A stretch of DNA of 57,196 bases, counting the filler, from Dugesia japonica (taxonomy: Eukaryota): the NCBI GenBank assembly GCA_001938525.1. It is 4 parts of 4 records of this genome, joined end to end, with 100 filler letters (N's around TTAATTAATTAA, not from the genome) between each part and the next. Parts side by side here need not be neighbours in the genome. Positions count along the whole stretch, not along the records: positions 30,269 to 45,629 come from MQRL01614704.1; 3 more parts are not named here. The stretch is one strand, 5' to 3'. Made by a program: the position numbers and the translations under genes. Positions 5,173 to 54,059 of this stretch are shown here, one piece after another (positions within the stretch are counted from its first letter, which is position 1; each line of letters begins with the position of its first letter). The notes beneath the pieces are model-generated. The model saw only the letters and a list, made by a program, of their open reading frames with translations. It made no database searches and was not told the origin of the DNA.

Positions 5173-7676
5173 TTAAGAATGTTTGAGTTTCTGGAAACTT
5201 TCTTGATACTCTTCATTCCATTGTATATCTTTCACATGTCCCTTAGTAGCCTCATATAATGGTTGCGCAATTTGAGCAAAGTTAAAAACAAATTTACGGT
5301 AGTAATTTGCCAAGCCAAGAAATGACCGTAATTGTTTGGTGCACTTAGGAATTTCCGCTTCAATAATTTTCTTAATCATACCATTATTAGCACTTATTCC
5401 CTCTTTTGATATTTTATGACCTAAAAAACTATATTCGGTTTTATACAGACTAAACTTCTTTGGATTGTGTCTTAATCCAGCTTTTGTATTCAATTAAAAA
5501 CCTCCTCTAGGTTTCTATCGTGTTCTGTTACTATTGTCCCGTAAACCAAGACATCGTCTAAGCACGCCGCGACTCCGTTATAAAGGATATTCTCAAATAA
5601 TACATGCATGAGACTTTGAAAAGTCACTGGAGCTGTTGACAACCCGAGCGGCATTCGGTTATAGCAATACTGGCGCTTCTTTGTCGAAAATGCTGTTTTC
5701 AATTGTGATGATTCATCCAAACATACTTGATAATAAGCTTCTCCTAAATCTAACGACGAAAAATTGGAAGCTCCTGCCAATGTATCGAAAATACGGATCT
5801 GCCATGGGGAAACTAACTTTCTCTGTAATCTCATTAATCTCCCTATAGTCCTGAAACATCATAATCGTTCCGTCCTTCTCTCCCACAACTACCAGTGCGA
5901 GTTGCATGGACTATGACATTTCTTAATTATACCCATTTTCAACAACTTCGAGAACATATCATCCACTTTAGATTCCATTTGCATCGCCATTCGTCTTGGA
6001 TTTTGACTTATAGGAGTCCTTACTGTTTTTAAACAATTTGTTACCAGATTTGTACATCCTTTATTGAACTCCGACGCTATAAAAATAGTTCCATTCAATT
6101 CTAATTTTGTGAACTTTGACAAATTATTGGATCCAAAAATATTAAAAACCCTTTGTCCTCTTTCTTATTCCCAATATATGAAACTTAAGACTTCCGAATC
6201 TATTGAATTCATTGCGACTCTCGATAAAAGCTTGAATCCAAAAGCTGAAATAATATTCATATCCCCAACAAAACTCGAATTTATATCTTTAACTACCGTA
6301 ATCTGGATATTCTTAATCATTCCATTCCAACTAACCAAAGCTTTAAACTCTCCTAAACATGTTATTGCTTNNNNNNNNNATGCTCCTCTAAGAGATATGT
6401 CTGATTGCCGTAAGATAGGATTTCCGCACATTCTCCACTTATCTTCTGACATCATTGTTACTGCTGCACCCGCCACATCTCTGTCATTTAAATTATGATT
6501 TTGTCTATTTGTGTTTTGATCATATATAATAGCTCCAGTCTCTTGCTCTTGAAAATCTCTGCTTTCATCAAGTTTCATATCGTAATAACTATATGCTAGA
6601 TCATCTGAATTATTTTCTTTGTGAATACACTGAACCTTTTTCTTGTGTTATTTTGCAATAAGCTACAATTATTAAAAAAAATGATTGTCCTTACCATATA
6701 TCGAGCAACACTTATTCAATGGACAGTTGTTTCTGACATGACCGGACTCATCACAACAATAACATTCCCTGGGTTTAAGTCGTCGTAATTCGGGCTCAGG
6801 TAACCTTTTCGCTATGTTTTATACTCTTGCTATATGCTTCATAGAAACCATAGGTCTTTGGGGCTTATCGTATTTGTTCGACCTCTCAATAGGTTGTTTT
6901 CTCTCTGAATCCTGCAGTCCTCTATTTGAGTTGGAATACTGCCTCCCTTGATTATTTACCAATCATTTGATTACCTGTAGTATAATGTGTCAAATTGGCC
7001 TTTTAATACCTTTTACTGCTGCGTATGTCAGCCTTTGCTCTTTTTTGCTATCTTCAATTGCAATAACTTCTGACGTTTCTTCAATACTCATTGAATTTTC
7101 GAAATTTATCGTCAATTTCTCAATTTCTTCTAAGGACATATCTGGGTTCATTGCGATTGATTCCTTTACTTTCCCGGAGTACATTCGTTTTGAAATTATA
7201 CCCTTCCCGATCATGTCTTCTGTTTGCTTCACCGACAAAACTTCTCTTACCAATTTCCTAATAGCAAAATTTTCATAACTTTCATTTGATCGTTGATTAA
7301 CTTGGCTCAAATCGTCAATCTTTTGCAAATATGTTTTTGACTTGATGTACTTTGAACTGGGCAAATTTCTTGTATCTTCATCTGACGGAATCTTTATTTT
7401 TTCTTTAAAGGCTTTCCATAATTCCTACGCGTCACCGTTCAGCAATAGATCAAATGCTGCACATAAATTTAAAGAATTTATGGTTTCAAAATCTTCAATT
7501 GATTGTAACCACTCTTTCGCATCTTCTTTCTTGTCGTCAAAAAACTTTTTGATTATTGGATAAATTGATTCTCGAACATTCTTTGGCAACGATTCCACAA
7601 TTTTCATCCGCTGCTGACCCTTTGTAAGAACTGTGATTTCGGCATGGTCGCTAGTTACAATACTATCTCGACTCAT
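5173..7676 (-). mobile_element. Degenerate Ty3/Gypsy gag-protease-RT fragment
   Basis: Gag fragments 6990-7676. CCHC knuckle CYCCDESGHVRNNC at about 6721-6770. Protease-like AGAAVTMMS. RT motifs SLDLGEAYYQ, KTAFST, RMPLGL, CLDDVLVYG, FLGHKIS and LRSFLGLANYYRKFV. Confidence 0.9.
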
Positions 7677-7941
7677 TAAATATATATACGCTTTTTTGAA
7701 TATTTAAACAACAATATTATCTTATTGTTACTACAATAAATGCTTATTTTCCTTAATTTTCATGAATTTTTTATAACTAAATAATAAGAAATAATATCAA
7801 ATGATATTCATCATTTAACCAAAGAAAATTAGTTTGACTTTCTTATTTTAATTATTTATTTAATTATTTCATAACTTAAAATGTATTTTTTTAATCTTTT
7901 AAAAAATTCTCATGATGAAATATAACAAAAAGAGTTCTTGC

Positions 7942-8236
7942 CGTAATTTTGGAGTTGTAAGAGCATGTAATGGTCCAATCTTATTTTTAGTATTGTTTTT
8001 TTTCTGCAATAGCTGTGGAATTAAAGGGAACTGCAATGATGTTACAACATTGTTAGTACAAGTAATATTCATATCACATATTTCTGAGCCATTTTTAATA
8101 GCACTTGGTGAATTTGCGAACTTAACGATTATTGGATCAGTAGAACCAGATGGAACATATCCGTTAAAATTTTGGATCGCCAAAGCTGCTTCATATCTTT
8201 GATCAAAGCGTATGAAACCAACACCTTTTGAATTAC
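7942..8236 (-). CDS. elav: ELAV/Hu RNA-binding protein exon (RRM2 C-half and hinge)
   Basis: Acceptor ttag at 8240-8237, phase 1. Encodes [42 protein letters not shown]. The 3' boundary is tentative (GC donor at 7941). Confidence 0.85.
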
Positions 8237-9742
8237 CTAATATTACAAAAAATATCACGTTTATAAACTTTTAAATTAGATATATTTAAAATTTAATGCT
8301 TTTTTGTTCTCTGACTCTGAGAAGCATCTACTTATTGAAAATAATTATCATATAAAAATAAAATGAAGTTAAAAATCAAATTTTATGAAATAAAAATTAA
8401 AGAAAACTAATTTATCTAAGCACATGCTTTACAAAGATATGTGAAACAATATCAAATAATTGCTTTTTTTAATAAAAATGAAAATTAAATGTTAACATAA
8501 ATAAGCTCAATGTTTAGAAAAACCTGTTCAATTCAAAAATTTGACCGCCTAAAGTTTTGACTTCATACGAATGCCAATTTTCTGTAAAGAAATATTCCTT
8601 TAAAACAATAATTTTCTAAAACGAAATAATTGAAGAAGTAAATAAAACAAATTTAAAATTTTTAACAAGAATTAAACTTCATCATTATTTTGTTTTCATA
8701 AGAGTTATATTGAATTGTTAACTCTTGATAAATTATAAGTTCTTACTTAATTATACCTTTAAACTATACACATTTAAAGATAGATTTATAAACAATATTT
8801 TTTTATTAAAAATTATATTTAATTGAAACTGAAGACAAATACAATTAAGTCACCTTTACACTTGAGAAATATTTAAAAATAATTGAACCTAATAATAAAT
8901 ATACCAAATTAAAAATTTAATATATTCAATTTTATAATGCCCGTTTATTTTGTTTAATGAATAAAATATTTTGGATTTTCAATGTTACTATTTTATCAAT
9001 AAAATCAAAGCAATAAATATTTATACTACTAGCATTCACACTGTGACTCAGCTAATAAAAACGAAATAAAAACCATCTTCCAAAATATAAAATTTAACAA
9101 TGGATAAATAATTTATGAGAAATATTTTTAATTTTCGGCAGCCGAATAACTTAGGCCAATGAAGATTATATTTAGAAAATGAAATGAAAGTGAACTTATT
9201 TACATATATTACTTTATTAAATTAAAATATTAAATTTTTATTAACCAAAATATTATTTTATTAATTTTGTTAGTTCTAAGAAATGTGTTTTGAAAATTAA
9301 ATTTACACATTTTCAAAATTTGTTATAATTAATTATAGAACAAATGAAAATACAATAAATTAAGCATCACACAGCTGGAATGTCACCACACACCTGTGGC
9401 TATTCTCGGTTTTTGCATTGAGTTAACGTTTAAAAATAACGTTTTAAAATAATGAAAGTTCTTTACAAAGTCTTCAAGTGAATATTTGACGTTTCATATT
9501 TCGTTCTTTTAATTTAACATACAATAATTGCACATTATAAATTATATAGCAATTGACATGTTAATTATATGACATTTATATCAATTCGTACTTAGTATTC
9601 AATTTATTTTTAAAAATGTTGAATTATATAATTTGAAAAAAGAGAAAACAATGAAATTCTTAAACTGAAATAAATAAAATATTCAGATAATTTTTATTTT
9701 TTAAATAACTGATATTGAATAAAATTATATAAAGTAAAACAC

Positions 9743-9896
9743 CTGTATTGGTATCATTTAGTATGCGAGACGTGATGATTTTTCCACACTGACAGAATAA
9801 TAGCTCTAAATCTTTATTACTGAAATTTTTTGGTAGTCCAGAAACATATAGATTGGCACCTTTGATTGAATCTGAGCTTGGTCGGGCAAGAGATAC
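9743..9896 (-). CDS. elav: ELAV/Hu exon (end of RRM1, RRM2 N-half), 154 nt
   Basis: Bounded by cag and gt. Encodes [23 protein letters not shown]...IITSRIL. Phases are compatible with both neighbouring exons. Confidence 0.92.
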
Positions 9897-10970
9897 CTGA
9901 ATTTTATTAGCCACAACACACAATCACCATGACGAATAAATAAAAATTCTAAGTCTAATATAAACATCAAAGTGAACAAAACATTTTTTTAAAAATCATT
10001 AATATAAGAACTTTATGCATCTCAGAGACATTAAATAAATTTCACTCATAACACAATCTATTAATTACTTCTTATTGTAGTAATTTAATTTTTAAATACA
10101 AATTATCAGCATATTCGACTATTTTTTGTTTATCATATTTTTTATAATTTAAATAATATAAATTACCTGCTAAAATAATTTTTAAAAAAATTGATTTAAA
10201 AGCTCCTTTGAATTTTAGTTTCTTATTTGAAAGAAAATTTTGTTACAATTTCCTTTAATTTCAACTTACCTTGTTACGAAAATTTATAATTGTCTCGCAA
10301 CGATTAAGAGTAAGTTTATTATTACGATAGTGTAATACCAAAATTAATGCTTATGTTATGCTAAAAATGTCCATGTGCTTCATCGAACGCTGACAATGAA
10401 AATGCCAAAGTAAATAAATATTTTTGCATTATAAGATTTGGGAAAATATGTGCTAATTTTGATGAGATTCACCATTAAACTGTATTAAAAATGTTGGGTA
10501 GACTCGTTTCAGATAATGTTGTATAAGAGCTAACTATTAATAAAATAATATACTATCAATTAATTCTGCCTCTTAATCCTATTTTCGTATTTCTAGTTAT
10601 TATTCATTTATGGGTAAAATTTTATTTCAATAAACTTAAAACAAAATAATTTATACAAAGGCTTAAAAATAGAATTTAAAAATAAATTTACAATAAATTC
10701 AAAACAAAAATTACATAATTAAGATTTAAAAGATAATATTTACAGGATTTACAGAAATAAAAATGATAGGACTTTTATAAATAGAACAATTAAATTTATA
10801 AATATAAACATACACTAAAAATTAAAAATTAACAAATATCAGCGTATAACATTACTTCACGTCAATTAATAAAATGAAATCTAATAACGTTAATAAGTTA
10901 TGCCTGCTACATTAAAAAATAATTTTATTAATAAAATAACGAAATTTTAAAATTTTATTTATATCACAAT

Positions 10971-13733: not shown

Positions 13734-15030
13734 TTAGGTAGTTGCATTAATTCTCACTGTTTGTTTTAATTAACTAACTTATTNNNNNNNNNNNNNNNNN
13801 NNNNNNNNNNNNNNNNNNNNNNNNNNNNNNNNNNNNNNNNNNNNNNNNNNNNNNNNNNNNNNNATTTAGTTAAGTTGTACAGCAAACGAAAACCGATCCA
13901 TTTAATATGACTAGTTTTATTCCAAAAAACGCACATTTGCGAGAGGCGTTGCTTTTTTGTTTTTATCTCAAAAGAAGTGCTGCAGAAAGTCATAGGATGC
14001 TTTCAGAAGCTTATGGCAACTATGCTCTGTCTGAAACATGCTGTCAAGAATGGTTTCGACCATTCAAAACAGGTGACTTTAATTTGCAGGATAAACAATG
14101 CCTAGTAAAGCCAAAGCGCTTTTCAGATGAAGATTTGGAAAAGGTGTTGATGAAAGATCGATCCGAAACAATTGAAACAATGTCAAAAATCATTCATATA
14201 AATAAATCTACCATAAGCAGACGATTAAAAGCCATGGGATACAAAAAGAAAGTCGGTAAGTGGTTGCCTCATCAATTGAAAGAAGCATATATCGCAAAAC
14301 AATTAGANNNNNNNNNNNNNNNNNNNNNNNNNNNNNNNNNNNNNNNNNNNNNNNNNNNCATTGTTACTTGTGATGAAAAATGGATTTCTTATGAAAATCC
14401 GAAACAAAGAAAATAATGGGTGAATCCTGGTCAACCCAGAAAATCAACACCAAAACTAGACTTGTATGGAAACCAGGTGATGTTATCCATTTTTTGGTAT
14501 CATAAGGGGATTATTTATTTTGAGCTTCTGAACAAACGTGAAAAGGTTGATGATCAGCGTTATCAACGACAATTAATAAAATTGAGGCAAGCCTTGCACG
14601 AAAAACGACCAGACTATTCCAATAGACATGAGACGGTGTTGTTAAAGCATGATAATACTCGATCACACATTTCGATTTTAGTGACGAATACGATAGCAGA
14701 ANTCGGATGGGAAGTTTTACTTCACCCACCATACTCACCAGACATCGCACCAAGTGATTACAATCTTTTTCGCTCAATGCAAAATGGCCTTTGTGAACAA
14801 CACTTAAACAATCATTATGATGTCCAGAAATGGCTTGACTATTGGGTAAATTCCAAGGAAGAAAAATTTTTATCGTTGAATTCATTTGTTGCCAGAAAGG
14901 TGGGAAAATGTTGTTAGCAATGNNNNNNNNNNNNNNNNNNNNNNNNNNNNNNNNNNNAAATGTATTTGGAGTTTTTTTTTACATTTCTTCTTATTATTAA
15001 AAAACAGCGAGAATTAATGCAACTACCTAA
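13734..15030 (+). mobile_element. Full-length mariner element (about 1.3 kb) with inactivated transposase
   Basis: About 30-bp TIRs TTAGGTAGTTGCATTAATTCTC(A/G)CTGTTT with TA on both sides. Transposase at 13907-14920 has WLPHQL, IVTCDEKW, HDN and YSPDIAPSDYNLF. In-frame stop at 14414-14416 and a late frameshift. Confidence 0.95.
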
Positions 15031-15391: not shown

Positions 15392-17520
15392 ACTCTCCTC
15401 TCACAAAACTAAACTAAGCTACTCGATCCTTCTCAGTTTTGTTCCTTCTTGGCCGCTCAATTTGATCTGATGGGGTGATACAAACTTAGTGATTTTGAAA
15501 GGACCATCATATTGGAAATCATTTTTCTTCCGGTTTCGGAGTTCTTTCCTGATCAATACTATGTTTCGGATTTTAAAATTACGTTGACTTCGTTTATCAT
15601 TTTCGAAACTGGCCATTCTTTTTATCAGCAACCTCTAAATTTTTCCTGACGTCCTTTGTAATTTCGGTATCTAGTAGGTTTTGATAATTCTTTCCTGAAT
15701 GTTTGTTTATCTTGTAACCAAATACGATTTCAAAATGCGAGAATTTCGACAAAATTTTTTGAATTGCGTTAATAATAAACTCAACCCTCAGAAGTAACTC
15801 ATGGCAGTTTGTGTGTTCACAACATCCTTTTAAAGAAGTAATGATCATGTCACGAATGGTTCTTATTTCTCTTTTTACCAGATCGTTAGACCAATGTTGG
15901 TATGGAGAACTGAAATTATGTCTGATCATCAAATCTTTCCATCTCTCTTGAAACCACGTGCTCTCAAAATTATTTTTCTCTGTCAGTCAAAATATGTATT
16001 GATCTTCCAAATTTACATATCCAATTTACTGTTCAAAATTATTTTGAAAGTTTATTGACCATCTAACTTAGAAAATGCGTTCAAACTCACCAACTTCCTA
16101 AAACGATCAATGATGGCAACCAAATACTTTTTCTATGAAAGCCACATCTATCACAATCTGTTCATGGAAAAGCGAGCTTCTTTTTGAAATCAATACTTCT
16201 TTTGCACAAATTTGATCTATTTTCTCCTAGTACAAACAATACAAATATGAACAATGATCTTTTAAATAATTGAAAATCTAAATGAATATTTGTTACGGAC
16301 TCTTGTACAAATTTTTATGGTAATAAAATAATATTTTCATCATCTCTTCTTAAAACTAGCAAATCTTTCACTACATTAAGACTGTTTCTCCTGGAAAACA
16401 GAATAGTCTTTTATAAAAGTTCTGACAACTCATCATTTTCTCCTGTTAAAATTCCCTGAACACATTAATAACTGGATCTAAGTTCTGTTCCCAATGTATT
16501 CTCTCCAACTGACCAATATCTTCATGTACCACGTTAATATNNNNNNNNNNNNNNNNNNNTATCACCGTGATTTGTCTGGTACTGCCCATGTGTAATATCA
16601 GAAATCATCGACAACTCAGCAGCATTACCATGCTCATCGCCTTTTTTGTACTTCAACTCAAAGTTGAATTCAGATTATTTCGCTAACCATGTCTGAAATT
16701 GAGAACTTACCGGAATCTTCTAAGTATTCATAAAAACTAAGGCTTTGTGATTTGTGCATTTTCCATAGAGATATTGTTAAAAATTTAAAACAAATTCGTA
16801 TAAGGCTATCAACTCCTTTCTTGTTACANNNNNNNNNNNNNNNNNNNNNNNNNNNNNNNNNNNNNNNNNNNNNNNNNNNNNNNNNNNNNNNNNNNNNNNN
16901 NNNNNNNGACATTAATTTAGTACTCCTCCAATGGTATCAAAACAAGCATGTGTATCAAGCACAAAACTCGACTCTTCCTAGGAATATCTAATATTGGCGC
17001 ATTGTATAATCTTCCTTTATATTTTGAAAACTTTATTGACACCGATCGATCCATTGTAAACCCTATCACTGTCTGAAATGGCAACATATAATGGTGCTGC
17101 AAGTTGTGCATATCCGTAAATAAATCTTCGATAATAATTTGTTAATCACAAGGAAGAACGCAAATAAGAGGTTCTGCTTTTAAAGTTTCTTCAATTTTCT
17201 TTTTATTCGTTCTTACTCCATCGGCACTCACTGTGTGTTGTTGATGAAATTTACATTTCTCCGGCTTTACATTCAAACCAGCACTACTAATACGTTGGAA
17301 AATTTCCTCCAATATATTGCCGTGTTTCTTTTCCCTAGGGCTATAAATCATAATATCATCAAGATAAACCAGTACACCGTTGAAAAGAAGGCCTTCTAAT
17401 AATTCATGCATTAATTTCTGAAATGTTTCTGATGATGTTGCTAATCAAAAAGGCAAACGATTGAAAAGCATATGATTGAAACCACACTGGCCTTTTTTAA
17501 TACTATAAGCTGAAACCAAT
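15392..17520 (-). mobile_element. Degenerate Ty3/Gypsy pol (RT, RNase H, integrase) fragment
   Basis: YLDDIMIYS (17142-17411). Integrase SSPYQHWSN and SHFEIVFG. GPY/F motif YDGPFKI. Purine tract near 15393-15403. Confidence 0.85.
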
Positions 17521-30268: not shown

Positions 30269-30670
30269 AAACATATGTCCAAATGGGTAAATTTCCACAA
30301 ACAATAAAAGGCATTGGTTTCAATGTAGTTTTAGGACCATGTTTGACTCCAACTCTGAAAAACGGTGAATTTTCAATTAACTGCTTAAAATAATCGGCAT
30401 TTTTGCGTCTAAAGTAACTTCCTAATCAATTATAATTGATTTATTGACTTAATTATCGAAACAGAATTCACTTTGCATATGAATAAGTGAGAATGATCCA
30501 ACTTCGAGACCTGATGAGAATATCTTCATAAAAAGGGACTTTCCTGCATTTGATGCCCCATCAAGTAGAATGCAAGTGGTTTTGCCGGATTGTAGCAATA
30601 GTAAAAGACCAATTGCACAAATACGATAATGCAAGGGATTAGTTTCCCCCCGTAAAATTGAGATTGTGTT
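30269..30670 (-). pseudogene. SF3 helicase, parvovirus NS1 / papillomavirus E1-like (endogenous viral element)
   Basis: Walker A GKTTCILLDGASNAGKSLF. Past two stops and a frameshift it continues SEFCFDN*VNKSIIID*E (Walker B), DYFKQL, RVGVKHG (B') and MPFIVCGN (C). Truncated by the contig end. Confidence 0.8.
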
Positions 30671-30820
30671 TTTTAATAAAATTATTAATAATGATAGTAA
30701 ATTGCTTATTAAAATAAAAAGTATTACTACTAACAAAATCTTCAATAAAGTAAGAAAGTTTTTCATAAACTATAAAAGTATTCAAATCCATAAAAATGAT
30801 AAAAAAGACTAAAACTGATT

Positions 30821-31084
30821 ATTATATATTAAAAACTAAAGAACAATTGATACAACAGTAACCTAGCAAATCAGAATCAACTAAATTTTTGATTATTCAT
30901 ATTTTTTTATATTAGAATAAAGACTAATTGATAGTTCACACTTACATTGAGGGCACGTCAGGCGTCCATATAAACTGGTAGATGATTTATACATGGTTTT
31001 TCGGTAATTCTCATTTTGACTTGCTTCATTTGATCCCGATATGAATTGGATAGCTTCGTTGTTTTCCGCTAAAATATATTGCAT
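30821..31084 (-). pseudogene. Small C4 zinc-ribbon-like ORF with one internal stop
   Basis: ...LTCPQCKCEL...KKYE*SKNLVDSDLLGYCCINCSLVFNI. A second CxxC appears in frame after the TAA at 30893-30895. Confidence 0.45.
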
Positions 31085-31093
31085 TAATTGTTA

Positions 31094-31588
31094 TTATAGA
31101 TAATTGAATATTACTGGTATTATATATGTTAAAAAATATAAATTATCGTGAAAATAATGAATTTGAAGCCGTCTTTCTAATGCTTCTCGAGTTGATTGCA
31201 ATAAATCGTATGGATATATTAATGAAACATCGTTAACACAGATTATTCGAGGCATACGTTTTGGTATTCTAGCTGTCGAATATTTAATGTCAATCATGCT
31301 TTCATATTCACAATCATATAAGTGAATAAGCTCGGTGACTGGCCATTTACGGAAATCAATGTCATCAATAACAATTCCGTTATTATTCTCAGTAATTAGA
31401 TTGAAACTCTGCCTATTTGTAACTAAACAGGGTTTAGTAAAGTGTGCTAATGCGAAGCTGGTTTTACCGATACCAGATTTGCCAACGAATACATGGGTAA
31501 CATCATCGTATACATCGAAAAAAGGATGTTTAAATTTGTAATGATGTGGAGTAATAATCTCACCATATTCGGATTTTAAATTTTCCAT
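31094..31588 (-). CDS. rep: CRESS-DNA-virus-type Rep, SF3 helicase domain
   Basis: Walker A GKSGIGKT, Walker B GIVIDDIDF, B' IDIKYS, motif C RIICVN and Arg finger ALERRL. Confidence 0.88.
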   Translation of the reverse strand: MENLKSEYGEIITPHHYKFKHPFFDVYDDVTHVFVGKSGIGKTSFALAHFTKPCLVTNRQSFNLITENNNGIVIDDIDFRKWPVTELIHLYDCEYESMIDIKYSTARIPKRMPRIICVNDVSLIYPYDLLQSTREALERRLQIHYFHDNLYFLTYIIPVIFNYL

Positions 31589-31898
31589 TATACATTTTTT
31601 TTAGTTATATAAGTGAACGGATCTCGCTTTTTTAAAAGATTTATTGCTTCATTCAAATTTTCACAATTTAATAAATTATTCCAAATATCTATTTTATTTG
31701 TCTTACATTTGCATGGTATGCCATAATTATTCTGTATGCCACCATGAACTCGAGTATGTTCTTTAGTAACATAATCGAGTATTCTTTGCTTATCATTTTC
31801 ATGTATTGGCGTACAAAAAGGAACCATTAAACGATTTCGAGCTACAGTAAAGTGGATGCTCTCTTTAAACTCGAAATACAACTGCAAATGGCGGTAAC
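31588..31898 (-). CDS. rep: CRESS-type Rep exon 2 (HUH endonuclease motifs II and III)
   Basis: After acceptor tttag (31900-31899): (G)YRHLQLYFEF (motif II) and ILDYVTKE (motif III YxxK). Joins the helicase frame by a -1 shift in an A8 run at 31595-31602. Confidence 0.8.
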
Positions 31899-31942
31899 CT
31901 AAATAATATTTATTTTTTTTATTATTATTAATATAATTTTAC

Positions 31943-32186
31943 CTGATGGAGACATTTCCTCTTGACCGAGAGCATATTGGATGCCGTTTTGTTGGAACAA
32001 TTCACTATATCTTCCAGCATTTGCACTATATTGTTTATACGATAATGATACGTGCCAATTTCTATGACGGCTGTTTGTGGAGCATTTAAATCGGAGATGT
32101 GATTCAACGTCTGGGTACTCATTATTTTTATGAGGTGAACCAGAATCTTCATGTTTTGTATCCAATTCTTTTCTGGGCTCATTCAA
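31943..32186 (-). CDS. rep: CRESS-type Rep exon 1 (motif I region)
   Basis: RHRNWHVSL (position of RNWCFTL motif I) and YALGQEEMSPS-G, then donor G|gtaaaa at 31942. Confidence 0.75.
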
Positions 32187-32360
32187 TAAGAAATATATAA
32201 GAAATTCAATAAGAAATATTTCTAATTGTTTTATTTTTTTAAAATTAAATAAAACTGATAGAGATAGAGTATATCATGATTTATTTTCAAATGTATATTC
32301 AAATAAACTCGATTTTTATTTTATATTTTGTAATCATTGGAAAAATAAACATACATTATT

Positions 32361-35784: not shown

Positions 35785-37638
35785 TAAATAAAGTGGGAGT
35801 ATTAATTTCTGAACTTGAAGAAATTACAAACGAAAAAGGATCTCGAATCCAGCCCAACTCGGGTTTCTTCAAAATTTTGAATCGTTTAGAAATGTTCTCC
35901 ATTAGCCCTGTGAGATGGTTAATAATCATATTCTTTGTTTCTTGAAATTGATATTATTACTAATAAAAAACTCAGGCATACATAGAAATAATTCAATATT
36001 GTTTTTTTCAATTTCACCTTTCCAAAAAATAAATTTTTAAAAAGCCTCTATTATATCACCAAGAACTAGTATATTTGTTTCTCTTCCTTGTAATCTCAAA
36101 TTCAAATAATTAAAATTTTTAAATATGTCAACAAGATAACAAATATTTAGAATCTATTTTTTGTTTACAAATAATTGAGAAAGATGGGGGATTTTATGTG
36201 ATAAAAACAATCAAACCTCATCTTTGAGATCAAAAAAACATCGAAATATTCTACCACGATAAAGTCATCTTACTTCGTTTTGTAAAAGAAGAGTTTTATA
36301 ACTAGAACCAATCTCGTAGCAAAGTATAGTAAAAATTCTGCTATTTAAGCTTCTACTTTTTAAAAAGTTAATCACATTAGCTGCATCATTTAATACTGAA
36401 CATAGATCTTCCTGCATTTCTTTCGCTATTAATGCTACTCGCTATTAATGTATCATACAATGATTGAAAACTATATCTGGTGCAATTTGTTTTATTATAC
36501 CTTTCAGCCATTTTTTATCTTTGGTTAGTGCAGCTGCACCATCAGTACAAATAGAAACACAATTGGACCATGAAAGTTTATTTTGTTTAAAAAAGTTATC
36601 AAGAAGCTCAAAAATTTTCTCACCATTTGTTCTTTCCATCAGAGCCTTGCAAAATAGGAATTCTTCACAAATATCACCTGCGAAGCAGTATATTACGTAT
36701 AAAATGATTTAAGCAAATTTTAAGATATCTGTAGAATCATTTAATTGTATTGCACAAACTTTACTATCATACAAACGACTAAGCAAAATTGATTTTAAAT
36801 TAATGGCGATACTAGTAATACGCCGTTAAACTGTGTCTTTTTTCCTCCATGTATAATCGACACCATTTTTATTGCAGCACGGAGAACTAGAGATTCTCCA
36901 ATGATGTGTGGCTTTTTATTTTTTCCTATTAGATACGATACTTCCAAAGATGCCTTTAAAGTTTTTTGTGTAACTATTGTATTTTATTTGGCTTTCTATA
37001 TTACTGGCACGTCTTTCATAATAAGATTTATCCTTATTAATTAAGTCCAGATTATTCGATTCTAAATGTCTCTTCATTTTAACTGGCTTCATACTTTCGC
37101 TGGCTAGTTTTTCAGAACATATTACACACAATGGACGTTGCTCATCAACAGTGTAAGTAAATCCATATTTGATATAATTCTCTAGACATTTCCTAGATCT
37201 TTTCGATCCTTTCACATTATAAGATGTTGACACTTCTTTAGACATTTCTGATTGAATCCCCTTTGAAGTATCAGTGTTTAAACTCTCCAACAATATTTTT
37301 CGACCTTTGCCGGGGTTTACAGATTCAGAATCAACATTTTCACTTTCGTTAGTTTTTGAACGANTTGTTCTCACTACCCATTTATCCATAATTAGTGTTT
37401 TTTAATCAAAATAAAGAAAATAATTTACAATAAATGATTATTAATGATTATTATTAAATATTAATGATTAATATAAGATAATTCAGTACAATTTCTATCA
37501 TATTTTTCTGATTCCTAAGTCGGTTAGATGTCCAATGACCAATCTGGTCTGTTTAACGTTAATTAATGTACCATGATAAAGTTAATTTTTTTGCGACCCT
37601 GCAAAACAAGTTAACGACCCATACTTTGCACATCACGG
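35785..37638 (-). mobile_element. hAT Charlie/Buster-type (ZBED5/SCAND3-like) transposon, decayed and 3'-truncated
   Basis: RPLCVICSEKLASESMKPVKMKRHL, ICTDGAAAL, NHCMIH and WIRDPF. 5' terminus CCGTGATGTGCAAAGTATGGGTCG at 37638. Confidence 0.88.
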
Positions 37639-39952: not shown

Positions 39953-41231
39953 CAGTGAAACCTCTCTAAGTTAAAAGTCATTGTGTATAAATTATTTTTC
40001 AAGTTACCGAGTTTTTTAACTTAGAGAAAATAAGTCAAAATTTGTGTCATATTTCTTGAAAAGTTATTGTACATTCTAATTTCTAAATTACAATTAACTA
40101 CCGATCCACCGTATTGCATCCAAGATGGTCACACGACGTGTAAAATCACTCACATAAGTGCATGAATCTGCTTCTAAGACCAATTTCTGACGCAAAATTT
40201 GCAATAGAAAATTTTATCTTGGAATTTTGTATTATTCTTTGATCAAGCGGTTGAGCGTCAAAGGTCATATTTGGCGGAAAGAACAGTTGAATATCTTGAT
40301 GGGATGCTACATTGTCAATAACTAGGAGAATGTGTCGCTTTTCTATCTTTATTTTCTTGTCGACGTCTTTCAGCCATTCTGTGAATATTTTGCTTGGTCT
40401 CCACGCTTTTTTGTTATTACGCCAAATGACCAGAAGTTTCTCAACATCTATGCAAGAAAATCTGAATGCACGTGGATATGCTGCGTGGCCGATCATAAGG
40501 GCTTGAGTTTTTCTTCAACAGTAAGAGCAACAAGAAAAGTCGAATAATAATTTATGCTTAATTTGACTTATGTTAATATTACCTGTCATACTTGACTCTA
40601 GAAGGATAGAGATACGATCTTTGGACTGTTTTGTACCTTTTCTGTCTTCACCTCGCTCTGTAATGGATCTATTAGGAGTTGGACGAAAGAATAGAGCCAT
40701 TTATTCGGTATTAAAGAAGTTTTTTTGATCAAATTTATCAATAATTAAGGTGATTATCTTTTTGTGGAACTCTACGGCACCATGTCCAAGTCTTCAGCAT
40801 CACCACATAACGCTCAGAAATCTATGTTGTTCCTCTTACGAAACTTCTTGAGCCACCCATTGCTCCCTTTGGAAATCGGTGATCCCCAGTGCAATGGCCA
40901 TCTTTGAAGCCTTCTCTCTAAACATGGAACCATAGATTGGAATGTTTTTCTTGTGACACATTGTAAAGAAATTTAAAACTTTCGTGTTTAGTTCATTTTT
41001 ATCATTTGCTTGGAGTTTGCGTTTTCTACATGAGTCACAATTGTTTTGCCATAAAGAAGTGATCTCATCACGATTATTCTCGATAACTGTGGCGGTTCCA
41101 TTTGACACTCCAAAGTGTTTTGCGAGGTCTGCTCCTTTGTGCCCTTTGTCAAGGAAATCCAAAATGGATTTCTTTTGATCGATTTTTAGTTCTACTAGTG
41201 ACTTCCGTTGTTTTTTAGTGGATGTGTACAT
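39953..41231 (-). mobile_element. Tigger/pogo DNA transposon remnant
   Basis: TA|CAGTGAAACCTCTCTAAGTT terminus. psq and CENP-B HTH (40836-41231). DDE pieces KQSKDRISILL, LLVIDNVASH and FFPPNMTFDAQPLDQ. Confidence 0.88.
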
Positions 41232-41849
41232 AGCAAAAGTGAAAGCAGATGTGGAGATGAAATATTGATACTCGGTACTAGTCTACAACGGTTTATCAAT
41301 TTATAAAAGTTTTAAACCGCTAGAATTAATTGTAAAAATGCAATCTACAATTTAACAATCTAAAATAAAATTGTAAATTGCTAGATTAAAATAAACAGTT
41401 TATAAAACTATAATTTAAAATTCAAATTATAATAATGATAATTCAATAAATTGCAATAAAATATTATAAGAACAACTAAAATAGCTTACGCAATGCCACA
41501 ATAATTTTTTTACTAGAGTTTTATGGGTATTAGTCTGGTATTCTTGTCTAATATTTATAGTAAAACTGGTTTTGCCTTTTAAATTCAAATTGTAAACATT
41601 AATAATAATAATTAAAATTACCTATTTTGTGTCAATATTATCAGCCTTTAAAATTTAAAAACCTTATTTGGTGTCAATATTATTAATTTTTAAAGTCCAA
41701 CAACCTTTAAAATTCAAATTGCAATTATTGCCAAATTTAATAATCAAAATTACCTATTCTGCGTCCTTGGAAATTGAAATAATAAAACATTTTATTAATT
41801 TTTATAAATTGGTGAAAAAATTTAATTTAATAGACAGACTTGAACACAA

Positions 41850-43757: not shown

Positions 43758-44169
43758 TTCTTTACAAATTAACAAGACCTATTCAAATACATCGAAACAT
43801 AAAAGAAAAAATTTAAAAAATAAAAAGAAAGGATTAAAAAAATTAATGAAAGAGAAAAGAAAAAGAAGAAAAAGAGAAAAAAATTAAATTTTCCAAAAAA
43901 AAAATAACAAGAAATTAAGGAAAATCTTTTTGGTCAATTCTTTTTGTTTTTAAAACTTGTTAACTGTTTCTCATTTTAATTGTTGATAATTAATATTTGG
44001 GGAAATGTGTAAAATTTTATTATTTTAATTATTTAAAAAATTGCATTTTAGAAAATCCATTATACAAATACAAATGACCACTTATATAGAACATTTTACA
44101 GTGAATTAATTAATTTGTGGTCAAAGTTCATTGATACGTTTACATTTGATCACTGATCATTATTTAACA

Positions 44170-45582
44170 ATGAGCGATGATAAATTACAAAGTTTTTTTA
44201 GACTATTAACTGAGCACGATTTTGATGCGAATAAAACAGTTCCAGATGAATTCAAATGTGGGAAATGTATGAAAATTTTAATTGAAGCTTGTCAAACTCG
44301 CTGTGGTTGTAGATTTAGTAAGACTTGTGTTGATGAAATGATGAATAATGGATGTACATTGTGTCATGGAATCACGGGTAATTGTAAAATTGAATTATTG
44401 TCTAAATTTCAGTTGGATAACAAAACAAATAAACAAATATCGAAACTATTAATGAAATATCCAGTGGAAATGTGCTCATACGAATGTGAATTATTAGAAA
44501 TGAGTGAACATTTAATAATATGTGGAAAGAAAAGCTTAAAATGTCAATTTGATAAGTTGGCCTGTGATATGAAGAAAATGACAAATGAAAAATTGATTGA
44601 AGATTTTCCATTAGATAATTTAATCACATCAAAATATTGATTGACATGATTGATAATATTAAAAATGAAGTTAAAGAATTGAAAGAAAATGAATTGAATG
44701 CAAGTTTAGTATTGAAAGATGAAAAATTAAAATCAATAAATGCAGAAATGCTAAATATGAAAGTAATTTCGATGATTGTTAGTAATTAATTATGAAATTG
44801 TTTATTTAGCTAGAGAAATTGAAGATGGAAAAACCTTTGAATGATAATTGCAAAATTAAAATCAGATAACAAGGAAGAATGTCAATTGATAAAGGTGAAC
44901 ATAAAAAAATTTGATGTAATTTGTAATAAGTATAGGCAGCGAAGATAGAACTTGATGAACAAATGAAAACTCTTGAGTATAAAATCAATGAAATCAATTT
45001 GGAGTTGAAGATACTATGCGAAAATAGTAAAATTGAGTTGATAAAAGTCAATTTTTTGTTGAATTGTTGTAAATATATAGAAATATTTCATGAAGTGTGC
45101 AAAGAAACCACCGATAAGTCATTAATTCAAATGGGGATCGGTCAGAAACTAAATCGACTAGAAAGAAATATTGATAACAAAATGAAAGGAATAATTGAAA
45201 TGATGATCGATAATCCTGATAATATTGGTGATATATTTGGGGTGATTATTTTATCTGGAGTGAATATTTTTATGCTCGACTGCATCCGTATAAATTAAGA
45301 TTGCACATTTATCCGTATGGTGATACATTGGAGATTTGCATATGCAATTATGATGATGTGATAAATCAATATTTGTCGTTTCCATTCACAGCTGATGTAA
45401 CAATAAAAGTCTTTAATAAAAATAAACGAGGGGCGAGCAAAAGTATCAAAAAATCTTGCCGAATAAATAAACCTGAAAATAATTCATACAATGCAAGTGA
45501 TTTATTTATTTATCCATATTCGACATTGAGAAAAAGAGGAAAATTGGAATCAAATTGTTTTATTATTGAATCCTGTGTTTAA
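44170..45582 (+). pseudogene. TRAF: TRAF-family gene (RING, TRAF zinc finger, coiled coil, MATH), disrupted
   Basis: RING-like CGKCMKILIEACQTRCGCRFSKTC. Zinc-finger CSYECELLEMSEHLIIC. Coiled coil. MATH-like HIYPYGD...LSFPFTADVTIKV. Stops and frameshifts, and several Cys are lost. Confidence 0.78.
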
Positions 45583-45629: not shown

Positions 45630-45729
45630 NNNNNNNNNNNNNNNNNNNNNNNNNNNNNNNNNNNNNNNNNNNNTTAATTAATTAANNNNNNNNNNNNNNN
45701 NNNNNNNNNNNNNNNNNNNNNNNNNNNNN
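45630..45729. other. Artificial scaffold linker
   Basis: N44-TTAATTAATTAA-N44. Confidence 0.95.
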
Positions 45730-45887
45730 GTGGTAGGTTTTCAGTTTACGGTGGTTGACCTTACTCTTAATGGAAGGTACACACCGATAAACCTTTATAT
45801 TCGGGTTCAATAATTTTTCCTTTCTTGTTATCGTTAAAATAAAGAAACTACACTTTTGAATACAGACATTTTATTTTATGAAACTAT

Positions 45888-46270
45888 TTAGAGCAAATCC
45901 AGCGCCCCTGGATCTAACCACTGGTTTGGTTCTGTTACCACGAAGTTGAAAACTGCGATGTCGTCATCGTCATCCCATTGTGTTACAGATGGGTTACCTA
46001 TTCGACGGGACAGGTCAGCAATATATTGCTTTAAGAACTCTATTTTCCGCATTAACAGCTGTTTGGTTTCGGTTTCCAAAGCTTTAGTTTGAGCCGCCAG
46101 ATCATTTTGCTTTTTTACAATTAAATCGAATTTTTTAATCAATTGATCCCGTTGATCCAAATGTCTCATAAGGGCCCTGTCTGTTTTACGTTTTAGGTGC
46201 CGTTCAACAAGCAAGCGGCGCATAATTCTATGGCACCTCCGGATGCTATTGGGGAAGTTACTTCGTGGCA
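45888..46270 (-). CDS. Element ORF-d, copy A (orphan basic/coiled-coil protein with acidic tail; terminal exon)
   Basis: Homology to copy B starts at acceptor ttcag|TG CCA CGA. 383 nt in both copies with no indels. AATAAA at 45875-45870. Confidence 0.7.
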
Positions 46271-46397
46271 CTGAATGAAAATCCATTAACAGAGAAACAA
46301 TAACAGTTATTATAATCAATTTTATCAGGTATTCAATGATGTAAAAAACTGAAACTAAGATTAAGATGTACAAATTTTTATTTATAGGAAATAAGAT

Positions 46398-46765
46398 TCA
46401 AACACGTGGATTGGGTTTGGCCTGGGTGGCCTTATCAATCAAGAGGGGGGCTAAAGGAGTCGCTGCTCTCAGCTTCAACACATTTTCCATCAAACTATTC
46501 TCCCGCTCCTGATAAGACTGAATAATCTTGGTGAAAGTTTCAACCTGGGACTTCCACACCCTCTCTTGATTCTCGGTGGCGTCCATCTCTGCTTTGAAAG
46601 CTAAACATTTTCGCTTGTATCGCTTTACTTTAGAGTCAGCCGCGGCGATCTCCGCTTCCCATCGCCTTTTGGCTAATCTATAAAGATCCCATGTGAGATC
46701 GAGATCTTCACTTGTCTCACGTAACTTTTTATGGGGAGCTTGAGACTTGTTTAGAGAAGAATGCA
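46398..46765 (-). CDS. Element ORF-c, copy A (orphan coiled-coil protein; terminal exon)
   Basis: Acceptor tttcag|TG CAT. 368 nt in both A and B. Homolog present in copy C. AATAAA at 46382-46377. Confidence 0.7.
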
Positions 46766-47025
46766 CTGAAAGATAAATAGGTAAAAGATGATACACATTA
46801 TCAGATGTTACTAAGCATTTGGGGTTCCTCAAATGGATAATGAACGAGGGTTCTACGATTAATTTTATTACAAATAGCATCCTGTATTATTATTATGTTA
46901 TTTTCCAAGAAATCTACTAAACGCGATTGCAAATTATTATTATTGGCAGAAATTTATTTACAAGAAGAATTGGAAATGACTACAATTCGAACACCTATTT
47001 ATTATGACAAACAACTACAAAGGAG

Positions 47026-48260: not shown

Positions 48261-50196
48261 AGAAATTACTCTCATTAATTACTTAATTTAATATAGTTAT
48301 ACTCCTTTATAACTTGATTTGCCGCAATTATGGGTTACCCAGCAACGCAAAAATAAGTTGATCGGTGATTCCGGCTGAGTAGTTGTGTAGATTAGTGGTG
48401 TGTGGGGTTTGGTGACTCAGCAGAACTTTTATGTGGTTATAAATAAATGTCGAAAAATTGGTTTGGCTTTTTTGTGTTAATAATCATGACGAGAATGTAA
48501 AACGACAATTTCATTGGTGATTATTTTACGTGATAATACGAGGGAATTTTCCCTATCAACGGTAAGAACACGAGATGAATTGTCTACTAAATGTGCATAA
48601 TGCAGAATAAGGCAATTCTATTTAATTTAGCATACGAACTCAACTACCTGAATCTAAAAATAAATTGAATACATATATAATTATGCTATAAAATTAACTA
48701 GAAAAATTAGCAAAATTTAACTCCAAATGTGGATTTATTTATAATGATTTACATACTAAATTTGTAAGAAAAATTTAACAACAACTAAGACAACACATGA
48801 TTACTTTTCTAAATATTTTCGTTTTCTGCAACGGAATAAAATTCGCTAATAGACGTTATTCTTTTATGCGATTACTGGGATTCCGGTTCTTCTTCTTGCT
48901 AAATCAATGGTTTTAGTAGTTTCTAGATTTAGTTGGAAAGCGTCTGCAATTACAATTTCCTCCTTGATTTATAATTAACTGTTTCGATTCACAAAGTTGT
49001 TTATAGTGGTTAATACACCGAAATCGAGATAATAAATTTTTTGTAGTTGGTTTTTTCGCTTAAAAACAGGGGTCCTTTTATACGATTTCTGAGACACCCC
49101 AACTTGTCTGGCATTGGCCAGTTATTTTTAATTTGAATTATTTGAATTTTTTTGGATCTGGTGCCAATCTTCCAAGAATTCTGGAGTTCTGATCGGTAGT
49201 TATTTTTAGACTGGCACATGATATCTGTGTCTTTGTTTTATTTATTTTTCAGGTCTGCCATTGGTCCAAACTTCGAACCNNNNNNNNNNNNNNNNNNNNN
49301 NNNNNNNNNNNNNNNNNNNNNNNNNNNNNNNNNNNNNNNNNNNNNNNNNNNNNNNNNNNNNNNNNNNNNNNNNNNNNNNNNNNNNNNNNNNNNNGTTATG
49401 GGCATAAAATGAATTTTCGTTCCAATTTTAATTAATTTTCGTTTAAAATTAATTGGTATACTTTTGTAATTGTTTCTTCTTTTTTATTAATTATTTTCTT
49501 CATTAATTTATTTAATTTTTGATTATTATAATTANNNNNNNNNNNNNNNNNNNNNNNNNNNNNNNNNNNNNNNNNNNNNNNNNNATTTTGTCAAAGTCAA
49601 ATTCCAATGCCCTGGCAGATACTCTTCTCGGATTTTCTTGAACCCTTTTCGTACACTCAACAGGAGCAAGGTTATGGGCATAAAATGAATTTTCGTTCCA
49701 ATTTTAATTAATTTTCGTTTAAAATTAATTGGTATACTTTTGTAATTGTTTCTTCTTTTTTATTAATTATTTTCTTCATTAATTTATTTAATTTTTGATT
49801 ATTATAATTAATCCTCTTTATTTTAGTCCTCTGAACTTCCAGTTTCATTTNNNNNNNNNNNNNNNNNNNTTTCTTGTTTGATTTTCCATACCCGCTTTTC
49901 TTTTATATGTTTCTTCCTGTAAATTTATTTCTAGTTTGGCATTGAATATTTTACGATCCTCTTTGATTTTATTTATTTATTTATTTTAATTCACTGAGTG
50001 TTTCACCCCAACAAATCACTCCCCGCTTAATTAAAATTCCGTGATAGGTCTTCAGTTTATGGCGGTTGACCCCTCTCTTAATGGGAGGTGCGCACCCATA
50101 AACATTTGTATTTGGGTTCATTTTTCCCTACGATTTTCAGTGAAGAAGGAAAGTACAATATTGATTAGATATCTTTTATTTCATAAACAAAAGAAA

Positions 50197-50579
50197 TTAT
50201 ATTAAATCCAGCGACCCAGGATCCAACCACTGGGTCGTGTCGCTTACGGAAAAGTTGAAGGCGGCGATATCGTCACCATTGTCCCATTGCATTAAAGTTG
50301 GATTGTTTATCTGGTGGGAGAGGTCGGCTATATATTGTTTAAGGAATTCTATCTTTCTTAACAATACTTGTTTGTTCTCCGCCTCGAGTGCTTGGGTTTG
50401 CGATGCTAAATCATTCTGTTTTCTGATGATTAGGTCCAATTTCTTTATGAGTTGATCACGTTGGGCTAAATGTTTGAGAATGGCCCTATCTGTTTTACGT
50501 TTTAAGTGCCTCTCAATAAGTAGGCGACGCATAATGCGGTGGCATCTTCGGATGTTGTTGGGGAAACTAATTCGTGGCA
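50197..50579 (-). CDS. Element ORF-d, copy B
   Basis: tttag|TG CCA CGA. VPRISFPNNIRRCHRIMRRLLIERHLKRKTDRA...QWLDPGSLDLI. AATAAA at 50180-50175. Confidence 0.7.
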
Positions 50580-50705
50580 CTAAATAAAGGAACATTAACA
50601 AAGGAAATAATGAACTTTATCGTTATCGAATTTATTAGAAGATCAATGATATAAAACAGAGACCAAGACTAGGGTATACAAAATTTTATTTACAGGATAG
50701 AATGT

Positions 50706-51073
50706 TTAACCACGAGAGGTGGGTTTCGTCTGGGTGCCCTTATCAATCATAAGAGGCTCCAGGTAGGATTTTGCCTTAAGAAGCAGGATATCTTTGACCA
50801 GTTTATTCTCACGGTCATGGCTGGACCGGATGATTTCGGCGAACGACTCCACCTGCACCTTCCCCACTCTCTCTAGGTCCTGGACAGCTTTCATCTCTTC
50901 TCGGACGTTAGTACACTTGGTTTTATAACGTTTTACTTTAGCGTTGGCTGTGGCTGTCTCCGCTTCCCATCACCTTTTCGCTAGTCTGTAAAGATCCCAT
51001 GTGAGATCGAGATCTTCACTTGTCTCACGTAACTTTTTAAGGGGAGCTTGAGATTTGTTCAGAGAAGAATGCA
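50706..51073 (-). pseudogene. Element ORF-c, copy B (single CGA>TGA stop)
   Basis: ttcag|TG CAT. Same length as copy A. TGA at 50972-50970 where A has CGA. Confidence 0.7.
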
Positions 51074-51224
51074 CTGAATATTATTATGGTTAAATATGAC
51101 AATTACAAGGTCTATTGGATTAACATTAACAAAACGAAAGCTGATCTTGTGCAACGAAAGAAACATAATACAGGAAGACAAAACTTTAAACACCTATTTA
51201 TTTATTTTAAACAACAGACAAAAT

Positions 51225-51578
51225 TTAGGTAGCAGGATTAATATTGTTGATATAAGGGGCCGTATTTTCACTGTCTATGATACCAGACGGTTCCCTAACC
51301 CCCCAAAGAAGGTTAGTTATAAACGCCTGTACTGCAGGAGCTGGAGGTGGAGCGGGTGCTTGGTAGAAGGAGGTCGCAAGAGTGCGATATGGGCCTGTCC
51401 AATTCTGATATCGCTGCCTCTCGCCAAAATCTCTTATCCGAGAGATAATTGACTCTACTGGAGGTAAGTTAGTCCTATCGACTAGGATTCCCGCGTCCCG
51501 ATTGTGGGGATTATGATGCCGGCGGAAAATGATTCGTCGTGTTTTCCTATCTATGACTCTCTCCCATATCGATTCCAT
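51225..51578 (-). CDS. Element ORF-b, copy B (117-aa orphan protein)
   Basis: Intact ATG-to-stop ORF with acceptor tatag 2 nt upstream. Homolog in copy A. AATAAA at 51202-51197. Confidence 0.7.
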   Translation of the reverse strand: MESIWERVIDRKTRRIIFRRHHNPHNRDAGILVDRTNLPPVESIISRIRDFGERQRYQNWTGPYRTLATSFYQAPAPPPAPAVQAFITNLLWGVREPSGIIDSENTAPYINNINPAT

Positions 51579-51710
51579 ATCTATAATTAACAGAAAAGTG
51601 GTTTATAACGTATAACTCTTAAATTACACAATAATAAACACGAGAATAAACAATTAGATTTAATCCGGTTGCACATTTATTTTATAACTAACAATAAGTC
51701 ACAGATTACA

Positions 51711-51905
51711 CTAGGTCGGCGGACTCTCCACATCTAAATCCACGGAAGGCACTATGGGGAACATTTCTACGAAACAGAAAAGATCCGCCTCGTCCGGGTG
51801 TTCCACTTTTCCCTTACTTAGCAGATGGGCGATGAACTGTCTCAAGCGAACAGTTTGCCGACGTCGTTTTATCCCTCTAAGAGTTCGGTACAACTCGGTT
51901 GGCAT
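51711..51905 (-). CDS. Element ORF-a, copy B (64 aa)
   Basis: MPTELYRTLRGI...GKVEHPDEADLFCFVEMFP. Acceptor tttag 3 nt upstream. AATAAA at 51681-51676. Confidence 0.65.
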   Translation of the reverse strand: MPTELYRTLRGIKRRRQTVRLRQFIAHLLSKGKVEHPDEADLFCFVEMFPIVPSVDLDVESPPT

Positions 51906-53379: not shown

Positions 53380-53590
53380 TAAGGCTTATATAGCCTTTTC
53401 TGACGCATCTCGGCATCCTTGCCATTGGCTGCTATTTTAAATTTGAATTTTCTGTTTCCTATTGGTTCTAACGCCAATTTTTTAAGATTTTTCTCGAGTT
53501 TTGGTGCCACGATTGGCAGCTATTTTTAGAGTGACACATGACAATTGTGTCTTTGTTTTATTTATTTTTTCAGGTCTGCCATTGGTTCAA
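53380..53590 (-). promoter_or_regulatory. Putative LTR U3 promoter (several CCAAT boxes and TATA)
   Basis: Four minus-strand CCAAT motifs upstream of TATATAAG (about 53392-53385). Equivalent TATAAAAGG in copy A (about 49082) and copy C (about 34102). Confidence 0.5.
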
Positions 53591-54059
53591 ACTTCAAACC
53601 CCTACAGTGGTTCTCCTGATGAGGTTGGGGTTTTGACGTGCCCAATTTTCAATGCCTTGGCTGAGACCCTTCTCGGATTTTCTTGAGCCCTTTTCGTACA
53701 CTCGACAGGAGCAAAGTTATGGGCAAAAAATGAATTTTAGCCCTAATTTTAATTAATTTTTGTTTAAAATTAATTGATATTCTTTGGTAATTGTTTCTTC
53801 TTTTATTAATTATTTACTTCATTAATTTATTTAATTTTTCCGATTATTATAATAAATACCTTTCATTTTAATCCTCTGAATTTCCAGTTTCATTTAACAG
53901 CGTGCTCCTGATTTTTTTCTTGCTTGATTTTCCATAACCGCTTTTCTTATATATGTTTCTTTCCGTAATTTTATTTCTTGTTTGGTATTGAATGATTTAC
54001 GGTCCCCTTTGATTTTGTTTTCCATTTCACTGGGAGTTTCACCCCAACAATATTATCAA

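Follow-up and report, generated by a model that had tools for sequence, protein, structure and literature searches.

The window analysed here, a 57,196-nt stretch of Dugesia japonica DNA joined from several contigs, contains a truncated, frameshifted Rep gene copy interrupted by a genuine 44-nt intron, and this copy probably derives from a hairpin-ended single-stranded DNA (ssDNA) virus of planarians related to the element PEVE. It lies on contig MQRL01614704.1 (C614704), which starts at position 30269. The copy is a transcribed fossil and not a functional gene, being both 5'-truncated and frameshifted. Its intron, called i3 below, is a real spliceosomal intron that splits a Gly codon immediately ahead of HUH motif II. 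The capsid gene and terminus of the element are absent from the window; such features are known from relatives.

Structure and transcription of the Rep copy

The predicted protein combines an HUH nuclease with an SF3 helicase in the arrangement of Cressdnaviricota (motifs I-III, Walker A and B, motif C and an Arg finger; Table 1). A preliminary description of the locus had treated motif III, Walker A and B, motif C and the Arg finger as intact. Each motif is present in the window copy, but they are spread over three ORFs, and a frame change between motif III and Walker A leaves the nuclease and helicase domains out of frame with each other. Nor is the gene itself intact: its 5' part has been replaced and its reading frame changes. 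It also continues past position 31094, where the described interval ended, through a second, predicted GT..AG intron (i4) into a last exon. Two other accounts of the frame change were considered and rejected. An assembly error is ruled out by run X7, which has even, DNA-like coverage and is identical to the window over 1222 nt, including i3 and the frame change; an extra intron near 31600-31590 is ruled out because paralogs read through this region in frame. When the separate pieces of the window were searched against Pfam, the Rep parts gave sub-threshold matches only.

Table 1. Features of the Rep copy and its surroundings, in window positions
Feature	Position	Strand	Remarks
Multicopy repeat, unrelated to Rep	32194..32296	.	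Stands in place of the Rep unit's 5' part, break at about 32190; about two dozen contigs match it alone, at 85-92%
Upstream exon remnant	31943..32182	-	Contains motif I; dual-coding, with overlapping +1 frame; first ATG at 32182
HUH motif I	32063-32043	-	
Intron i3, 44 nt	31899..31942	-	GT..AG, phase 1; separates HUH motif I from motif II
Middle exon	31115..31898	-	Motifs II and III, Walker A and B, motif C, Arg finger; frame-disrupted
HUH motif II	31896-31879	-	
HUH motif III	31776-31762	-	
Frame change, A-rich run	31588..31602 (about)	-	Divides nuclease part from helicase part; X7 agrees
Walker A	31483-31460	-	
Walker B	31375-31361	-	
Motif C	31246-31232	-	
Arg finger	31177-31166	-	
Intron i4, 46 nt	31069..31114	-	GT..AG, phase 0; after the helicase; predicted from conservation
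Last exon	30893..31068	-	Rep tail to 30958; overlapping 58-codon frame with conserved CxxC to 30893
Second, free-standing NS1/E1-type SF3 helicase gene	30270..30812	-	Two frame changes and one stop; cut by the contig end

Both ends of the gene carry overlapping frames. In the upstream exon, which is dual-coding, dN/dS is 0.30 for the Rep frame and 0.55 for the +1 frame, and 14 of 15 copies have no stop in the latter; an atlas lookup of this overlapping frame returned no assignment. At the 3' end, the position of i4 is shared by 10 of the 14 rows from the window's subfamily; in a sister subfamily, 4 of 6 rows have the stretch two codons further upstream. In 10 of 14 intron-bearing rows the CxxC frame overlapping the Rep tail is open. 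Because this frame often lacks a Met of its own ahead of the motif, its product would need a phase-1 donor, and we speculate that it is reached by joining one such as i3.

Splicing of i3 was predicted by the preliminary description, which proposed an RNA check across 31943/31898. The exact joint is found in a 457-nt contig of run X1, otherwise identical to the window, and again, with no mismatch, in a 151-nt contig of run X4 from a different study; both runs are RNA by guess only, with a depth at the joint of 6 and 2, respectively. X7 contains no joint, and run X2 yields unspliced contigs spanning both i3 and i4. Three raw RNA runs, each searched to 6-25%, showed no exon coverage at the i3 junction, and among runs recorded as RNA none was listed as containing the stretch. 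We assign the joints to the window locus because the closest paralog recovered shares only 84% (40 of 806 candidates scored), a figure on which a processed, intronless twin was also rejected as their source. Together with the paralog comparison below, these data support i3 as a spliceosomal intron at the predicted positions, and they indicate that the window copy is likely spliced at low level. The companion claim that its size is typical of the host is loosely supported, with 9 of 11 junctions in host chaperonin genes giving GT..AG introns of 38-54 nt by a heuristic pick. Separately, one X1 contig jumps 424 nt (window 30741-31166) with five other letters in between, and probably represents a deleted paralog.

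The spliced X1 contig reaches 32266, placing its start inside the upstream repeat. The window copy is likely read from this repeat; its first ATG opens the overlapping frame, and it could not yield a full Rep. Such a transcript could be taken as a sign that the locus was domesticated, as the preliminary description had suggested among other options, with the host expressing and splicing it for a purpose of its own (for example, a truncated overlapping-frame product or a source of antiviral small RNA). Splicing in two likely RNA runs, a transcript that begins in a host repeat and a first ATG that opens the overlapping frame all accord with this idea, but we consider it highly improbable: the copy is truncated and frameshifted, its second helicase is broken, transcript depth is low with no cover in the three raw RNA runs, and the intron is common to 13 other copies and therefore predates the locus.

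The remainder of the window holds other genes and repeats. Repeated coiled-coil ORFs about 4.3 kb apart (45700-46900, 50000-51900 and 53385-53594), which form a repeat family, match DNA beside Rep copies at four other loci (L064, L065, L038 and L049). A host RRM gene with a long intron occupies 7900-9900 on the minus strand (RRM_1 match; ELAV-like by eye). Translations inspected by eye suggest gypsy-type reverse transcriptase fragments, a mariner transposase, hAT- and pogo-like fragments and TRAF-like ORFs at 5173-7700, 13874-14917, 17142-17444, 36916-37401, 40146-41282 and 44110-45582. COX1 contigs from this assembly make sense only if AAA is translated as Asn, as in the flatworm/echinoderm code; taken with the homology to PEVE, this makes a planarian host likely.

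Intron gain and loss among paralogs

The 854-Mb genome of the host contains at least 584 candidates for the helicase piece, of which 150 were scored. From the better matches we took 97 loci, 53 of them with a recognizable motif II, a pattern that misses some lineages such as L096. Alignment of these paralogs, suggested in the preliminary description as a measure of intron conservation, showed that 14 of the 53 carry, at the window's codon, an insert 41-46 nt long with GT..AG ends. Inserts also bounded by GT..AG were present four codons upstream in 17 (i2; 52-55 nt) and inside motif I in 7 (i1; 52-56 nt). Thirteen copies read through, including one (L056) that is without its upstream part and groups among the i1 copies, and two were unclassified. 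One protein in the Logan collection (P0002) reads through an i2-type intron in frame, indicating that the family and i2 are present in other runs.

The GT and AG ends of i3 are kept in 14 of 14 copies and its interiors are 0.685 alike, versus 0.66 when shuffled; the exon flanks are 0.80 alike. Left unspliced, 13 of the 14 copies would encounter a stop codon. Invariant ends around interiors at the shuffle level argue that selection has maintained the ends. The low G+C content of the window's i3 interior (5%) and its lack of conservation are what would be expected had an AT-rich insertion broken a dead gene by chance, an account to which we give almost no weight given that the ends recur at the same codon in every one of these copies, at nearly constant length, and that two runs skip the segment exactly.

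A tree of 47 of the 53 copies together with the PEVE Rep (six short rows omitted) confines each intron to its own subfamily. Ten i3 rows form one group (support 97/96) with the intronless L060 inside it, five intronless rows branch outside this group, and the deepest lineage is without an intron in this region. DNA trees also nest L060 within the i3 group, on the upstream side (support 99); they leave the intronless L061, L046 and L048 unplaced, and in these trees both gain and an older presence with losses are compatible with the data. An additional upstream intron is found in seven of eight aligned copies and is exactly missing in L057. The sisters L057 and L060 are each precisely devoid of a different intron, the upstream one in the former and the motif II one in the latter. 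The simplest reading, we infer, is three independent gains in the nuclease domain accompanied by occasional exact losses. Under this reading, an ancestor of the window's subfamily would have acquired i3 at a CAG|G site, selection would have preserved its ends, introns would have entered two further sites in sister lineages, and individual lineages would have lost introns exactly.

Sequence divergence between copies bears on when this occurred. Between copies, exon 2 has a pS of 0.76 and a pN of 0.14 (60 of 105 pairs, gap-free alignable); its dN/dS is left uncorrected because pS is saturated. The large excess of pS over pN implies that the copies diverged under purifying selection, as working genes, before they broke. 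Since i3 is common to copies with near-saturated synonymous sites, it predates the insertion in the window and consequently does not indicate that the host adopted this locus. Intron gain is seldom caught with intronless sisters available, and here three sister lineages have introns at three different sites of one conserved nuclease domain, all within about 40 codons. With L057 and L060 each lacking a different intron, models of gain and of RNA-mediated loss become testable in one genome.

Element layout and the case for a virus

The full layout of a related element is preserved on a 6.2-kb contig, L057, between inverted repeats. Rep, with the overlapping frame, shares one strand with a helicase of 235 codons; the other strand encodes a PLA2-bearing ORF and a 446-codon ORF, with the genes directed outward from the centre. 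Pfam identifies the PLA2 domain in a relative (PF08398, E 3.6e-11) and assigns the second helicase to the NS1/E1 type (PPV_E1_C, E 2.1e-06). This helicase is a separate ORF with no fused nuclease, and the initiator is of CRESS type. In three relatives from other subfamilies (L070, L099 and L123) it is the capsid gene, not Rep, that precedes the second helicase, showing that gene order is variable.

The 446-codon ORF is likely a parvovirus-type capsid gene. Its top match in a language-model atlas is a densovirus/parvovirus capsid (0.96; recognition value low), its PDB profile match is VP2 (E 0.005), and for a poor structural model (pLDDT 34) all 45 of the 45 Foldseek matches listed are parvovirus capsids. 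Protein searches with this ORF and with the second helicase returned no match at E 0.001. In the genome the capsid ORF has 97 matches, and a capsid match occurs in 13 of the 97 loci examined. Between the PLA2 and capsid ORFs of L057 lies a 43-nt, AT-rich GT..AG segment in phase 0 (L057:4460-4502), which likely marks a spliced VP1 by analogy with densoviruses, in which VP genes can be split.

The termini are long palindromes with two short arms, predicted to fold into a T shape, with stems of 61 and 86 bp. At the helicase end, one arm order is found in three copies and the other in two, with compensating base changes; the two orders sit in different subclades and so may be fixed by lineage.

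A virus-derived transposable element, spreading in the genome by its own Rep and acquiring introns during endogenous life, would account for the abundance of candidates in one genome, for near-identical copies in the i2 subfamily and for contigs with several copies. The planarian element PIVE is treated as a virus-like transposable element in the available portion of PMC3198968. We nevertheless consider this reading unlikely, because capsid ORFs remain open over more than 400 codons in several subfamilies, element ends are cut at differing points with no common terminus seen, and synonymous sites in the window's subfamily are near saturation between copies. At L053, L054, L055 and L056, a single contig holds two or three Rep copies that have diverged (72-83% alike) and are arranged in tandem or inverted, as insertion clusters. 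Many copies, relatives with capsid and PLA2 ORFs, and near-saturated synonymous sites support the earlier suggestion that the family has long been resident, as a virus, in this animal lineage.

Our favored reading, a hairpin-ended hybrid ssDNA virus, can be extended to a model of its life cycle. The virus would replicate in the nucleus by rolling hairpin, with the CRESS-type Rep nicking the hairpin and serving as both nickase and helicase. The detached NS1-type helicase would package DNA, by analogy with AAV, in which Rep40/52 is the DNA packaging helicase. Viral transcripts would be spliced by the host spliceosome to give full Rep and probably further products. Viral lineages would have gained and lost introns while still replicating, and their genomes would then have integrated many times at random break points and decayed.

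More tentatively, we propose that planarians host unclassified linear, hairpin-ended ssDNA viruses that bridge Cressdnaviricota and Parvoviridae. In these viruses a CRESS Rep would resolve parvovirus-type telomeres and an NS1-type helicase would package the genome into a parvovirus-type capsid, Rep would repeatedly gain and lose host-sized introns and splice NS2-like products, and hundreds of fossils would record this history. It counts against the virus reading in general that the family is known here from integrated genomic copies and that an IMG/VR scan gave three pattern matches and no relative. The family would provide PEVE-like elements with a likely capsid and replication mode, and it suggests that linear genomes with hairpin ends can rely on a Rep of CRESS type, which is relevant to how parvoviruses arose. 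Split genes of this kind are overlooked by ORF-based virus searches.

Comparison with known systems

Among 379 candidates, the sole named match to Rep was that of PEVE (30% identity, E 5.9e-31), and the best PDB profile match was likewise a Rep (E 1.4e-4). A profile built from ten Reps recovered 2451 proteins at E 0.001; among the best 20, names were informative only for PEVE and a single CRESS-DNA virus cluster, the latter's Rep being a named neighbour. PEVE and PIVE, both known from planarians, have Rep-like ORFs and inverted repeats (PMC3198968). PEVE resembles the elements studied here in its homologous Rep, second NS1/E1-type helicase, terminal inverted repeats and planarian host, as far as the available portion of that report describes it. 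In that portion, an intron, a capsid and a T-hairpin are not described for PEVE. Its Rep differs in belonging to another lineage, pairing in a quick tree with L096 from the present genome (support 99) apart from the group of the window's subfamily (97), and in having no intron at the i3 site. The second helicase falls in the same Pfam family as that of the PEVE small segment, with no direct match in a protein search. Motif I is absent from the recorded PEVE Rep (P0001) and from a 92% relative (P0158), both of which start with a Met four residues ahead of the motif II Gly. PEVE may have an unannotated upstream exon, judging from this start, and the recorded Rep may lack its first exon.

A literature search outside subscription journals and Repbase showed neither an account of the full gene layout nor one of an intron in any PEVE-like Rep; the available portions of PMC6186406, PMC9241645 and bioRxiv 10.64898/2025.12.11.693146 contain nothing on the PEVE-related Rep family. 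A pairing of a circovirus/nanovirus-like Rep with a parvovirus-like capsid is described for NIH-CQV (PMC4419787) and is shared with the planarian elements; the available portion of that report does not mention a second helicase or Rep introns.

Like the genes described here, the Rep genes of mastreviruses, genomoviruses and cruciviruses are split by a spliceosomal intron. The intron of mastreviruses and genomoviruses lies between the nuclease and helicase. Those groups have one intron, whereas here i3 falls between motifs I and II, up to three introns are present, and the site varies between sister lineages. Spliced Reps are described for 36 cruciviruses, mostly with the helicase motifs in the second exon (PMC7468197, available portion).

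A Helitron- or Replitron-type HUH transposon, as the preliminary description had also envisaged, is not supported for the family. Helitrons have an SF1 helicase and Replitrons have none, and to our knowledge neither carries capsid genes, PLA2 genes or hairpin telomeres. They resemble the present family in having an HUH nuclease and many genomic copies, but here Rep has SF3 motifs, and relatives carry linked capsid and PLA2 ORFs.

Further parallels are with Parvoviridae, including ambisense densoviruses and AAV. PLA2, a capsid, genes on both strands, an NS2 overlap and T-shaped hairpins are traits of that family; the planarian elements share PLA2, the likely capsid, genes on both strands and T-shaped terminal hairpins, and their overlapping frame resembles NS2. 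They differ in their CRESS-type initiator, in an NS1-type helicase without a nuclease and in genes that run outward from the centre. Judged from integrated copies, relatives of the window copy end in inverted repeats with T-hairpins, as in the linear genomes of Parvoviridae and unlike the circular genomes with a stem-loop origin that characterize Cressdnaviricota, and their nuclease and SF3 helicase are not fused in an NS1 as in Parvoviridae. Because the family departs from a defining trait of each group (circularity in the one, a fused NS1 in the other), we regard it as parvovirus-like with a CRESS initiator and file it in neither.
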